In this document: positions 60,447-64,000 of the stretch, piece by piece
Layout of the letters: the number at the start of each line of letters is the position of its first letter
How positions within the stretch are numbered: the stretch's first letter is position 1
The notes under the pieces: model-generated
Seen by the model: only the letters and a program-made list of their open reading frames with translations
What the model was told of the DNA's origin: nothing
Databases searched by the model: none
Translations under genes and position numbers: made by a program
Source: an uncultured Alphaproteobacteria bacterium
GTDB lineage: Bacteria; Pseudomonadota; Alphaproteobacteria; CAAGCB01; CAG-977
Assembly: GCA_944393745.1 (NCBI GenBank)
Contig: CALYBD010000007.1
Location: 561-64,560 of the forward strand
Direction of reading: 5' to 3'
DNA length: 64,000 nt

Positions 60447-61340
60447 ATGTATTTGTCCGCGCGGGAAACCGCCGAAAAATGGAGCATATCGGAAAAGCGC
60501 GTGCGCGTCTTGTGCCGCGAAAACCGCATTGCGGGGGCGGTTCAATCGGGGCGCGGCTGGCTGATCCCCTCCGACGCGGTCAAACCCGCCGACGCCCGTT
60601 TAAAAAAAGCGGAAAGCCTCCTTTCCTTGATTGACGATAAGAAAGCCGACTTGGACGCGTGCCGACCGCTGACCGAGGGCGAAGCCGAACGGCTGGCGCA
60701 GGAGTTTGTCGTTGAATACACTTACAACTCCAACGCGATAGAGGGCAACACGCTGACCTTACGCGAAACGGATCTGGTGTTACGCGGCTTGACCATCGGC
60801 GAAAAACCGCTGAAAGACCACTTGGAAGTTGTCGGACACAAGGAAGCTTTTGACTATATCCGCGAACTGGTGCGGGAAAAGCAGCCGCTGACCGAAACCG
60901 TCATTAAGCAGATTCACTACCTTGTTTTGGCGGACAAAAAGGACGATCGGGGCATTTACCGCCGCATTCCCGTTTATATCGCGGGGGCGAAAACCGCACC
61001 TGCCCAACCGTACTTGATTGCGCCTAAAACGGAGCAGCTGCTTGCCGCTTATCAAAACGACAAAGGGCATATCGTTTCCCGCTTGGCGCGGTTACATCTG
61101 GAATTTGAATCGATCCACCCGTTCATTGACGGCAACGGCCGGACGGGACGACTGATCGTCAATCTGGAATTGATGAAAGCGGGCTTTCCGCCGATCGACA
61201 TCAAATTCACCGACCGCAAAGCGTATTATAACGCCTTTGACACTTATGCCGGAAAACAGTCCGTTTCGGCGATGGAAAACCTGTTCGCCCGTTATTTGAA
61301 CGAACGGCTGGACGTTTATTTAAATATGCTGAAAGGTTGA
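60447..61340 (+). CDS. Fic family protein with N-terminal excisionase-like HTH
   Basis: MYLSARETAEKWSISEKRVRVLCRE..I.GA...GRGWLIP HTH; SNAIEGN inhibitory motif; HPFIDGNGRTGR Fic motif. Confidence 0.93.
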   Translation: MYLSARETAEKWSISEKRVRVLCRENRIAGAVQSGRGWLIPSDAVKPADARLKKAESLLSLIDDKKADLDACRPLTEGEAERLAQEFVVEYTYNSNAIEGNTLTLRETDLVLRGLTIGEKPLKDHLEVVGHKEAFDYIRELVREKQPLTETVIKQIHYLVLADKKDDRGIYRRIPVYIAGAKTAPAQPYLIAPKTEQLLAAYQNDKGHIVSRLARLHLEFESIHPFIDGNGRTGRLIVNLELMKAGFPPIDIKFTDRKAYYNAFDTYAGKQSVSAMENLFARYLNERLDVYLNMLKG

Positions 61341-61831
61341 AAAAAATGCCCGAATGTTTCGCCCCGTCCGTCGATTCGACCTGCTCCAAATTGATTTTGG
61401 GGTCGATGCCGGGGGTAAAATCGCTGGAACAAGCGCAGTATTACGCCCACCCGCAAAACGCGTTCTGGCGGATTATGGCAAAGCTGTTCGGCGCGCCCTA
61501 CCCGTTCGCTTCGTATGACGACAAGCTGAATTTGCTCTTGTCGCACCATATTGCCTTGTGGGACGTGATTTCGACCTGCGCCCGCAACGGCAGCTTGGAT
61601 TCCGATATCCGCAACGCCGTCCCGAACGATTTTGAACGCTTTTTCAAACAATATCCGCAGATAAAGACCGTGTTTTTCAACGGGCAAAAAGCGCACGACA
61701 GCTTTATAAAAGCGTTCAAAACCGCACCGTTTGCCACCACGCTGACGCTTGTTCCCCTGCCGTCCACCTCGCCCGCTAACGCGCACTTGTCGTTCGACGA
61801 CAAGTTAAAGGCGTGGAGCGTGTTGTTGTAA
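61337..61831 (+). CDS. DNA-deoxyinosine glycosylase (UDG superfamily, family 6 HDG-like)
   Basis: LILGSMPG..SL..QYYAHPQNAFW, IALWDV, FFNG, LPSTSPAN. Confidence 0.88.
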   Translation: MKKMPECFAPSVDSTCSKLILGSMPGVKSLEQAQYYAHPQNAFWRIMAKLFGAPYPFASYDDKLNLLLSHHIALWDVISTCARNGSLDSDIRNAVPNDFERFFKQYPQIKTVFFNGQKAHDSFIKAFKTAPFATTLTLVPLPSTSPANAHLSFDDKLKAWSVLL

Positions 61832-61832
61832 C

Positions 61833-61860
61833 GGGAGAAAATGACCTTCATTTTTCCCTT
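61833..61860. terminator. Hairpin between the convergent Fic-HDG and darTG units
   Basis: GGGAGAAAATGA-cct-TCATTTTTCCC. Confidence 0.6.
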
Positions 61861-61886
61861 ACAGCTTTGCGCCTTGAAATAAGTTT

Positions 61887-62579
61887 TTAGAGTAAATCTC
61901 TCTGCTTTCTTAATTCTCTTTCTTTTCGGATATATTCGTCTTTGACGATTTCTTTAAAGTTTTCTTTGCTGTCAAGCGCTTTTTCCAACATCCCGTTTTT
62001 CACAAGTGATACATACAACGCCACCGAATAGGCTTGACAATTCCATGACTTTTCAGGATTAAACTCTATATCTGTAAACGCTTCATAGTTCAAAACGAAT
62101 TGCCGTAAGCCATTATTTTTATTCAAAGCATTTATGTACAACCAATCGTAAAAAGACGTTGGGGGATTCAGTTCAAATCTGTCATTAAAAAATTGAAAGC
62201 AAACCAACTTTCCCGATTTTCTCAACCGCTCATCTTTTTTAGCTTCTATCGGTTTTTTGTCATATAGATCCACAAACGGACCAGCAAGCTCAAACGTTTT
62301 GCTTCCTTGAAAAGCCGTTTCAATCGTCAAAATTCGCCCTTTATTGGTTGTAAATGACAAATTAAACGCACTAAGCGCAATACCTTCCTCCGTCAAAGAT
62401 TTCGAGGACACTTCCAAAATCGACTTAATCTTCCTTTGCTCCCAAGCCGCTTCATGTAATGCCTGAATGTTTTTTTGTTTTTGGGATACTGCGAAACCGG
62501 CAGCCCATTTAAACTCTATCTCAATTTCCGAAACACCGACTTTTTTAGTCATAGGAACATATATTTTTCGTTCAGCCAT
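61887..62579 (-). CDS. darG: DarT1-associated NADAR antitoxin (DarG1)
   Basis: EFKW..GF..SQKQK.I..LH, ILEVSSKS, LSAFNL, E.AFQGSK.F, FYDWLYINAL, FTDIEFNP.KS.NCQA. Confidence 0.85.
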   Translation of the reverse strand: MAERKIYVPMTKKVGVSEIEIEFKWAAGFAVSQKQKNIQALHEAAWEQRKIKSILEVSSKSLTEEGIALSAFNLSFTTNKGRILTIETAFQGSKTFELAGPFVDLYDKKPIEAKKDERLRKSGKLVCFQFFNDRFELNPPTSFYDWLYINALNKNNGLRQFVLNYEAFTDIEFNPEKSWNCQAYSVALYVSLVKNGMLEKALDSKENFKEIVKDEYIRKERELRKQRDLL

Positions 62580-62595
62580 AACCCCTTAACCCTCT

Positions 62596-63681
62596 TTAAA
62601 AAGGAATATCATCAAATGAGGATGTTGTATCCTGATGAACTTCCATTTGCACGCTTTTTGTGTTTTCCCAAAAATCTTTTTCCGGCTTTTTGCAACGCCG
62701 CATAAAATCGTTCTCCGGACATCTTTTCCACTCTATATTTTGATATTTTTCCCAAACCTTTTTTATTTCAGAACTCCAATCATTTTCAAACACATATACA
62801 CCGGTAATATATTCCGGTTCAATTTTTCCCATTACAAGAACTTCGGCTTGGTTATGCGTCGGAATATTCTGTTTGATAAATCCGTCCGCATACAGTTTTT
62901 CCAAATCCGCTCTTGTATGCATTTTATCATAATCGCCGAACATTTGCTCAAAAGCTTCCACTGCGCGTCTGAAATGGTTCCAAGCAACTTTTCCCGAAGC
63001 GGCGTTTTCTTTACAAAACAAACACTCTTTTTCCCACAGCACGTCCGGCTTTATTTTTAAAATCACATAATTCCTATCAAGATTGCTACTTTTAAACTTA
63101 TACAGCAACGGCGCATTAGGAAGTGTAATTGAACAACTGATACCGTTCAAACAAAAATCCAAACGTTCTTCATCATTTACAGATGCCTTTATCATCTGTT
63201 TTTCCATTTCATCGCGCGAAAGTATTCCGTTTTTCAGAATGCTTCCCAAATTATCAACCGACGTAAAGTGAAGAAGCTCTTTAATATTTCTCAAATTAAC
63301 GATATTCTTTATTTTTTCTCGTCCTTGTCTTAACTCTTCTGCCTTTTCTCGCTCAATTCGTTCAATTCTCTCTTGTTCAAGTTTTACTCTTTCCGCTTCC
63401 TGTAATTTGTAGCGCTCCCACTTTTCTTTTTCCTCCCTCTCTTTTTCTTTTTTCAGTTTTTGCATATCTTTTTCACGCTTTTCAAGCTGCTCTTGCTGCA
63501 ACCTTTTAAATTCAACAGAATCCGATGAAAAAAGTTCCGGAATATCCGACAAAGCAAAACGCGCATCTTTACCACTGTCAAAGTGCATTACTATGTAAGT
63601 TCCGTATTGTTTTTCCTCTATATTAACAACACTTCCACTTCCCAAAGTTTCGTGAAAAACCGTTGCCCCTATAATCCCCAT
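62596..63681 (-). CDS. darT: DarT (DUF4433) ssDNA ADP-ribosyltransferase toxin, DarT1 type, with N- and C-terminal extensions
   Basis: LLHFTSVDNLGSILKNGILSR, D..RLD, NAAS, QAEVLV catalytic Glu; immediately upstream of the NADAR gene. Confidence 0.85.
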   Translation of the reverse strand: MGIIGATVFHETLGSGSVVNIEEKQYGTYIVMHFDSGKDARFALSDIPELFSSDSVEFKRLQQEQLEKREKDMQKLKKEKEREEKEKWERYKLQEAERVKLEQERIERIEREKAEELRQGREKIKNIVNLRNIKELLHFTSVDNLGSILKNGILSRDEMEKQMIKASVNDEERLDFCLNGISCSITLPNAPLLYKFKSSNLDRNYVILKIKPDVLWEKECLFCKENAASGKVAWNHFRRAVEAFEQMFGDYDKMHTRADLEKLYADGFIKQNIPTHNQAEVLVMGKIEPEYITGVYVFENDWSSEIKKVWEKYQNIEWKRCPENDFMRRCKKPEKDFWENTKSVQMEVHQDTTSSFDDIPF

Positions 63682-63693
63682 CTTATCCCCCTT

Positions 63694-64000
63694 TTATCCT
63701 TTGTTATTTGCATCGAGCAGTTCTTTTACGGAATCGCACAACTGCTTGGCTGAAAAAGCCCCTTTATTAAAATCGTTTAACAGTTTTTCTATTTTTCCGT
63801 TCAGTGCGCGCAATTTTTCCCCTTGTTTTTCCACCGCTTCGACGGACGGGACTTTTTCCAACGCTTTTGTTATTTCCGCTGTGGTTTGTTCATATTTCTG
63901 CTTCTTTGAATACGATCCGAACGTCATCGTTGCGGGGATTGCAACTACCGCAAAAATTCCGCCAAGCGCACATACACCGCCCAGCATCCCCAACCCGCCG
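63694..64000 (-). CDS. 3' end of an unknown protein: Gly-rich hydrophobic segment followed by a coiled coil (truncated by window end)
   Basis: Frame open to the window end: GGLGMLGGVCALGGIFAVVAIPA then KKQKYEQTTAEITKALEK...; stop 12 nt before darT with a GGGGGA RBS in the gap. Confidence 0.7.
   Translation of the reverse strand, partial: GGLGMLGGVCALGGIFAVVAIPATMTFGSYSKKQKYEQTTAEITKALEKVPSVEAVEKQGEKLRALNGKIEKLLNDFNKGAFSAKQLCDSVKELLDANNKG

Follow-up and report, generated by a model that had tools for sequence, protein, structure and literature searches.

The window analysed here is a stretch of 64,000 nucleotides from an uncultured alphaproteobacterium (GenBank assembly GCA_944393745.1, contig CALYBD010000007.1, positions 561 to 64,560 of the forward strand), and it carries a gene for DarT1, the ADP-ribosyltransferase (ART) toxin of a DarT1–NADAR pair. 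The protein ends in ...TTSSFDDIPF, like the C-terminal tip of SSB, the bacterial protein that binds single-stranded DNA. In bacteria, that tip (...DFDDDIPF-COOH in E. coli SSB, hereafter SSB-Ct) is the docking peptide for SSB-interacting proteins. Judged from sequence comparisons, the tail of DarT1 is a genuine mimic of the SSB tip, selected, disordered and modular (gained, duplicated and lost). The DarT1–NADAR pair and the SSB docking peptide are both known; what is new is their union in one toxin. Full-text literature searches (within the scope of one library) gave no description of an SSB tip on DarT or on any other toxin of a toxin–antitoxin system, and the tip on DarT1 appears undescribed within that literature, as the first-pass annotation of the window had supposed. 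Neither the paper on DarT1–NADAR structures (PMC11543638) nor that on DarTG1 counter-defence (PMC11825919) mentions SSB or a C-terminal tail of DarT1, and the DarT1 of E. coli C7 (208 aa) is tail-less.

The final codons of darT1 read TCA TTT GAT GAT ATT CCT TTT TAA (SFDDIPF-stop), so the look-alike end announced from the letters alone is present in the open reading frame (ORF), and the SSB tips of the host match it (Table 1). Since the stop codon directly follows the terminal Phe, the carboxylate of the Pro-Phe end is free. The DarT1 tip shares with SSB-Ct an aromatic or acidic residue at position −7, an acidic run, a terminal Ile-Pro-Phe with its free carboxylate, and a place at the end of a disordered segment. 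Unlike in SSB, the tip is borne by an enzyme with neither an OB (oligonucleotide-binding) fold nor evidence of tetramerisation. The possibility that the DarT1 protein is itself an SSB is rejected (no PF00436 match, no OB fold in the AlphaFold model). In the source genome (2.25 Mb, 46% GC, 60 contigs), only three of the 8,555 stop-to-stop ORFs of at least 80 aa end in [DE][ILVMFY]PF, namely the two SSBs and DarT1. With a looser end ([DE]x0-2[ILVMFYW]PF), 14 cases occur among 1,517 ORFs from 79 related loci of other genomes: 12 DarT1, one true SSB, and one apparent chance match. The motif at the tip of DarT1 is far beyond chance.

The identity of the toxin, also proposed from the letters, is borne out by PF14487 (DarT), which spans residues 138–313 (E 1.9e-24), and by the adjoining PF22397 NADAR gene. 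By these family matches, darT1 and the NADAR gene form a DarTG1-type (DarT1–NADAR) system; DarTG2 (DarT2 with the macrodomain protein DarG) is rejected, the partner being a NADAR. The structure nearest to the ART domain is E. coli C7 DarT1 (8BAQ; Foldseek against the PDB, E 2e-16, 32% identity, TM 0.79 on the target), and phmmer against the PDB finds the same protein (1.2e-27), its 208 aa aligning with residues 124–310. The catalytic-type motifs LLHFTS, NAAS, and PTHNQAEV are intact, and H138, N226-A227-A228, and E280 occupy invariant or nearly invariant alignment columns. The DarT1–NADAR pairs of E. coli C7 and Geobacter lovleyi (Schuller et al. 2023, PMC11543638; 8BAQ, 8BAR, 8BAS) have the same ART fold with a PF22397 NADAR directly downstream. 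Unlike the characterised 208-aa DarT1, the present one, known here from its sequence, adds a Tudor-like N-domain, a long helix, and the C-terminal tail.

Two AlphaFold2 runs, with alignments of 19 sequences (mean predicted local distance difference test, pLDDT, 80.6) and of 98 sequences (90.3; 40 of the sequences tailed), give a common layout: a small beta domain (7–53), an uninterrupted helix (56–130), and the ART domain (136–345). The C-terminal segment has a pLDDT below 50, from residue 344 in the first run and from residue 347 in the 98-sequence run, to residue 361 in both. Residues 313–345 are structured in the models (strand 317–321, helices 323–330 and 334–345/351) and conserved as PDDFMRRCKxPEKxFW, with R329 and W338 near-invariant. 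The first-pass annotation had placed a flexible linker of ~35 residues past the ART domain; the linker is indeed predicted to be flexible, but its length is not kept, since the structured residues 313–345 leave only ~10 free residues before a tip of 6–7 residues. Disorder of the tail despite 40 tailed sequences in the alignment is the appearance expected of a short linear motif acting in trans.

The tail could also act in cis, as an acidic mimic of single-stranded DNA (ssDNA) that lies on the basic DNA groove of DarT1 or of NADAR, keeps the enzyme silent, and is displaced when ssDNA becomes abundant. The tails of SSB, T7 gp2.5, and T4 gp32 act on their own DNA-binding folds, the binding of SSB tips to the OB fold of SSB itself being established. 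The DarT1 tails are acidic (positions −25 to −8 hold on average ~4 acidic vs. 1.2 basic residues, and the DDD tip adds to this), and DarT is known to be inhibited by ssDNA mimicry: the C-terminal domain of DarG, in DarTG2, is an ssDNA mimic by which DarT2 is held in check (Deep et al. 2023, cited in PMC11825919). There too, an acidic element is tied to the control of a DarT enzyme, but it is a folded antitoxin domain that acts in trans and has no SSB-tip sequence, and the present antitoxin is a NADAR. The 98-sequence model leaves residues 347–361 unplaced on the enzyme, which gives a cis arrangement no support without disproving it. For simple charge mimicry, an exact Ile-Pro-Phe-COOH would not be needed, and neither would agreement with SSB at position −7. 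Further, the loss of an autoinhibitor should raise the danger of the toxin, yet alleles that lack the tail alone, with an intact enzyme, recur. We regard autoinhibition in cis as quite unlikely.

The first-pass annotation made its reading depend on conservation of the tail among long DarT1 homologues, and the tail is indeed conserved among them. In the set of 16 close homologues (51–84% identity; those that are named come from alphaproteobacterial metagenome-assembled genomes, MAGs), 12 keep the tip and end in [FLSVY]-D-[DEY]-[DE]-[IFY]-P-F, and another one ends in DDENPF. The linker before the tip differs between them in sequence and length (QDTTSS, SGI, VIA, CGV, QDIYVP), and the Ile-Pro-Phe codons vary synonymously between loci (ATT CCT TTT, ATT CCC TTT, ATC CCC TTC, ATA CCA TTT), which argues for selection on the peptide. 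Three tail-less close clusters trace to two independent recent mutations that remove the tail alone. The first is GAA>TAA at the codon equivalent to E347 (window 62641–62643), present in two allelic backgrounds (P0006, L003:4970-5017, and P0004, L143:2530-2577); in both loci, the 45 nt past the nonsense codon still encode VHQDTTSSFDDIPF-stop, the same as in the window. In the second, an ATATAT tract that lies eight codons before the stop has lost 1 nt (P0011, L144:2460-2500 and L145; 7 contigs), and the +1 frame still encodes YVPYDEIPF-stop. In all tail-less alleles the enzyme domain is open, and the position of the nonsense codon coincides with the onset of disorder in the AlphaFold model. 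Such tail-only knock-out alleles would fit a modular add-on serving potency or targeting.

The tip recurs far outside this family. An HMMER search of 1.84 billion representatives gives 2,532 matches; among the 148 matches listed outside the close family, 22 end in a tip (DDIPF, DEIPF, DDDLPF, EDELPF, etc.). A second homologue search, seeded with the distant tailed member P0024, brings 105 new proteins, of which 55 are tailed, many of them from Poribacteria. Overall, 89 of the 272 DarT1 proteins collected, from several phyla, are tailed, as against at most ~1 in 1,500 background ORFs; the enrichment of DDIPF-like ends suggested as a check is observed. While the terminal Pro and Phe are present in 89 of 89 by definition of the tailed class, position −3 is Ile in 80 and Leu in six, D or E stand at −4, −5, and −6 in 82, 80, and 72, and F and D occupy position −7 in 21 proteins each. 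The consensus [F/D]DDDIPF is that of SSB (D-F-D-D-D-I-P-F). Four DarT1–NADAR pairs are found in a scan of 401 Bacillota genomes, none of them tailed.

In a tree of the ART domain, 31 of the 34 tailed rows fall within one subtree of 71 rows (moderate branch support, SH-aLRT 83), and the other three among the 96 rows elsewhere. The tail label changes 23 times on the tree, vs. a mean of 31.3 after shuffling, and none of 500 shuffles is as low. In these data the tail is clade-enriched but patchy. Several proteins have two or more tips (DDDDIPFGDNDIPF; DDIPL...DDIPF). The repeated tips of the Poribacteria type (DDDDIPFGDNDIPF; GIPLSY...DDIPL...DDIPF) often stand behind WD40 N-termini (L054:2534-4762, L056:2534-4732, P0178, P0204, P0215).

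That the tail has no function, and either resembles SSB by chance or was left behind, as a neutral trace, by a past fusion to the 3′ end of an ssb gene, is on these counts extremely improbable. The tail is dispensable in some natural alleles, and in one locus (L013) an ssb gene lies directly upstream of darT1, so fusions could arise. On the other hand, the tip is conserved across phyla through synonymous codon changes, it is duplicated in several lineages, and the gap between its frequency in DarT1 and in background ORFs is large. As to the locus in question, a Zoogloeaceae MAG has a true ssb (L013:3242-3694 (+), 150 aa, ending in EWAKDIPF) 49 nt upstream of an untailed darT1 (L013:3743-4816)–NADAR pair. 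A linkage between ssb and darT1 is rejected: the adjacency occurs in one of 79 loci, about the chance level, and may be a coincidence.

Sister proteins of the same DarT1 subfamily carry other modules. An N-terminal SSB OB-fold, with no tail, is found in the metagenomic proteins P0260 (33.3 bits) and P0265 (29.8 bits), above the PF00436 cut-off of 26, and P0266, also without a tail, scores 24.9 bits, under that cut-off. In the OB-fold proteins, the toxin took the other half of SSB. In P0198, RNase HII and DarT1 follow each other in one chain that ends in ...DIDNDIPF. Further modules of sister proteins are WD40 propellers, a CSD-like domain, and the Tudor-like domain, and tips occur also on short DarT1 forms of ~250 aa. 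From their composition, the long DarT1 proteins appear to consist of an enzyme core to which exchangeable modules are added, and several of these modules would point to ssDNA, replication, or transcription.

In the window protein, the N-terminal domain resembles the RNA-polymerase-binding domains of UvrD/PcrA, Mfd, and CarD (Foldseek: 7EGS_B, 5DMA, 9DQS, 6ACA, 4KBM), with sub-threshold Pfam matches to PcrA_UvrD_tudor (E 0.019) and CarD_TRCF_RID (E 0.051). In 7EGS_B, the UvrD/PcrA domain is in complex with an RNA polymerase lobe. On the basis of the modelled fold, this domain may be a second address, directed to RNA polymerase or to transcription bubbles. The Tudor-like domain occurs in 5 of 23 tailed and in 5 of 129 untailed proteins (Fisher p 0.008). 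A tight coupling of tail and Tudor-like domain is rejected; the association is moderate, and the tail combines with many N-termini.

The host SSB paralogues, which differ in their linkers, end in AFDDEIPF and LNDEIPF. In alphaproteobacterial hosts, SSB ends in DDEIPF and the DarT1 tips are DEIPF, YEIPF, or SEIPF, the close family having mostly DDEIPF. In Poribacteria, SSB ends in [DE]DDIPF and DarT1 in DDDIPF, EDDIPF, GDIPF, or DYIPF. In the Anaerolineaceae genome, one of the two SSBs has DDDIPF, and DarT1 has EDDIPF. The choice between E and D at position −4 agrees in 10 of 12 SSB–DarT1 pairs; as the pairs amount essentially to two host clades, a tip that tracks the SSB of its host is suggestive only. 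The comparison covers tips other than the six DarT1 tails in ...LPF; contigs of such variants (P0040, P0118, P0024, P0151, P0165) are 1.7–6.3 kb long, with no host markers on them. In hosts of untailed DarT1, the SSB tips vary by phylum (DDDLPF, EDDLPF, DGELPF, DEFPF).

SSB-interacting proteins such as chi, PriA, RecO, RecQ, and ExoI take the SSB tip into a hydrophobic pocket with a basic ridge. Chi, PriA, and RecO are classical receptors of the tip, and the host of the window encodes all three (chi as HolC). Whatever the precise version, it is quite probable that the tail works through SSB-tip receptors. The best-supported version is that the tail, by way of chi, PriA, RecO, and partners like them, localises the toxin to forks and hubs of ssDNA, a serious possibility if somewhat short of a probable one. 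It is the best-supported because the OB-fold and RNase HII fusions of the sister proteins can also be read as addresses, and because tail-only knock-outs are tolerated, as expected of a potency module. The last ~15 residues would then be a flexible tether followed by an SSB C-terminal tip, and the tip would plug into the pockets by which genome-maintenance proteins of the host, and possibly of the phage, hold SSB. Encoded in the host genome, chi (a clamp-loader subunit), PriA, and RecO are the candidate receptors. Docking on such partners would put the toxin at exposed ssDNA, where DarT1 would ADP-ribosylate bases, presumably guanine by analogy with characterised DarT1; the modification would block replication unless reversed by NADAR. 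The tail would be one of several interchangeable address modules of long DarT1; in the window protein, a further address, to RNA polymerase, may come from the Tudor-like domain.

Binding to SSB partners, localisation, and an effect on toxicity or defence are all inferred from sequence, and several points weigh against localisation through them. Most SSB partners have a single tip pocket, so a partner holding the tip of the toxin would not be held simultaneously by SSB, and recruitment would need partners otherwise bound to DNA or to the replisome (the clamp-loader chi, PriA, RecG). The tether is short (~10 residues vs. ~60 in SSB). The tail is patchy (the branches with good support force at least 10 gains or losses) and, having been repeatedly lost, it is by all appearances not essential; characterised DarT1 enzymes defend without one. 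A tip specific to its host is weakly shown, the agreement being suggestive, and in Eisenbacteria the SSB ends in EDVPF and DarT1 in DDIPF, an Ile/Val mismatch. Finally, the function of the tail is wholly a matter of what we infer.

Two questions are touched upon, how DarT reaches ssDNA under its coat of SSB and how infection switches DarTG1 on, and for both of them a toxin bearing an SSB tip offers a concrete and cheaply testable hypothesis: the tip is the same as the E. coli SSB tip, and natural tail-less alleles exist. The shared tail hints at a means of steering or controlling a DNA-modifying toxin that appears undescribed. The SSB-tip interactome would be widened from housekeeping enzymes to an effector of toxin–antitoxin and defence systems. 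The tail is present in about one-third of the DarT1 collected and combines with other modules that resemble addresses (SSB OB-fold, RNase HII, Tudor-like, WD40), which suggests, as a general principle, that toxins that modify DNA are targeted in a modular way.

With the same receptors, the tip could act by competition: it would titrate SSB partners, for example RecO, and stop the repair or bypass of the lesions made nearby by the toxin. RecO docks on the SSB tip and is present in the host, and some homologues carry at least two tips. DarT lesions are reported to be reversed by RecF-pathway recombination and by nucleotide excision repair. However, a toxin at a low level would hardly outcompete abundant SSB with four tails per tetramer, and there is no evidence of high expression. 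A repair blocker of this kind is very unlikely.

The tip could also be a bait, a role that the first-pass annotation had put forward beside hitch-hiking on SSB-interacting proteins. It would then serve as a decoy to which phage proteins that normally seize the SSB tip of the host (annealases of the RecT/Red-beta type, phage helicases, polymerases) are drawn, and its capture, by itself or because the acidic tail is drawn away from the enzyme, would activate DarT1 or bring it to the phage replication factory, and would supply the trigger of DarTG1. This is on the unlikely side, without being negligible. A trigger of DarTG1 is not described in the DarTG1 literature searched, phage SSBs or recombinases are what many defence systems respond to, and an FDDDIPF tip is present on some of the phage SSB-like triggers. 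Many tailed DarT1 have WD40 N-termini, which are typical sensor modules, and the patchy gain and loss, together with the recent tail-ablating alleles, resembles an arms race. But we know of no phage partner, and the host has proteins with tip pockets at all times, by which the bait would be constitutively occupied. The sister fusions with an OB-fold or RNase HII look like localisation modules, not sensors. Moreover, NADAR neutralises DarT1 enzymatically, by reversing the modification (DarTG1 literature, PMC11543638, PMC11825919), which leaves no obvious complex to release, and the sequences give no evidence of a stable toxin–antitoxin complex, although the release from DarG1 of which the first-pass annotation spoke presupposes one. 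The fuller proposal, that a large DarTG1 subfamily has its missing infection sensor in the tip and that phage proteins of replication or recombination, on capturing it, at once switch DarT1 on and carry it onto phage ssDNA, is somewhat less likely again. If it were true, defence would be set off because the toxin mimics a conserved host hub motif, one whose recognition the phage could not easily give up, and an arms race would have left its trace in a tip repeatedly gained, duplicated, and lost.

For docking on SSB partners, there is a precedent in phage T7, in which gp2.5 (the SSB) and gp4 (the helicase-primase) have common acidic tails terminated by Phe that go to the same sites of the T7 DNA polymerase. 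There, an SSB-type tail lets a protein that is not an SSB share the partners of the SSB, as is proposed for DarT1. The T7 proteins differ from DarT1 in forming a cooperative replisome and not a toxin, and in the sequence class of the tail and in the receptor. The tip is met again with defence systems in DRT10 or DRT4, which are triggered by phage SSB-like proteins with host-type FDDDIPF tips (bioRxiv 10.64898/2026.04.29.721553, 10.64898/2026.10.27.754916). There, as here, the host SSB tip is copied in a phage–host conflict; the copy is on a phage SSB there and on a defence toxin here.

Table 1. Coordinates of darT1, its parts and its neighbours (positions in the window unless a contig is named) and of the host SSB genes
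Feature	Position	Strand	Basis
darT1 ORF, 361 aa	62596..63681	(-)	ATG start, GGGGGA ribosome-binding site
TAA stop of darT1, adjoining the terminal Phe	62596..62598	(-)	sequence
SSB-type tip, F356-D-D-I-P-F361 (TTT GAT GAT ATT CCT TTT)	62599..62616	(-)	sequence; host SSB tips; consensus of 89 proteins
Disordered linker, E347-S355 (EVHQDTTSS)	62617..62643	(-)	pLDDT <50; variable among homologues
DarT1 ADP-ribosyltransferase domain, residues ~131-345, including the conserved C-terminal helices and W338	62647..63291	(-)	Pfam, Foldseek, phmmer
Single K/E/R-rich helix, residues 56-130 (75 residues), spacer or coiled coil	63292..63516	(-)	AlphaFold, pLDDT >90
N-terminal small beta domain, Tudor-like, residues 1-55	63517..63681	(-)	Foldseek; sub-threshold Pfam
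Gene for the NADAR antitoxin (230 aa), beginning 16 nt downstream of darT1	61887..62579	(-)	PF22397, E 4.8e-87
247-aa gene, 3′ part in the window; hydrophobic segment and coiled coil	63694..64000, running to 64437	(-)	contig C7
Lipoprotein-like 97-aa ORF upstream of the 247-aa gene, partly beyond the window	64505-64798	(-)	contig C7
Two host SSB genes	C41:2528-3013 and C60:40609-41088		genome contigs

In the set of 79 loci, which come from species-representative genomes, 59 have a NADAR gene beside the DarT gene, fused to it in a few. Tailed DarT1 occur in 12 of these 59 NADAR-linked loci and in none of the 20 loci without NADAR, and in all 12 tailed genome loci the NADAR gene is directly downstream. 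The hosts of the 12 are two alphaproteobacterial MAGs, Roseovarius, an Eisenbacteria MAG, an Anaerolineaceae MAG, and seven Poribacteria. For tailed proteins on short metagenome contigs, NADAR follows downstream wherever the contig is long enough. In plasmids, tblastn gives 31 DarT matches, all in the ART region only and none extending into the N-terminal module or the tail (the C-termini of the plasmid proteins were not read); in phages, it gives no match to the DarT1 query.

The 247-aa protein encoded upstream, which shows no significant Pfam family, is probably co-transcribed with darT1. The order of the genes is 97-aa ORF, 247-aa protein, DarT1, NADAR; in the relatives L143, L144, and L145, a conserved 113–114-aa gene, in the place of the 97-aa ORF, and the same conserved gene of 245–247 aa precede darT1. 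From this gene order, DarTG1 may be part of a four-gene cassette. The cassette has ~37% GC vs. ~50% in its flanks, which suggests horizontal acquisition. It sits between rpsA and a UDG–Fic pair adjoining cmk (window 60447–63681 and beyond). The Fic neighbour is a helix-turn-helix (HTH)-Fic and the UDG a glycosylase of the UDG superfamily; UDG and Fic are likewise adjacent in L144 and L145. DarT and NADAR domains occur in single ORFs in L009:21-1703 and L030:3998-5365, and in the proteins P0217 and P0263.

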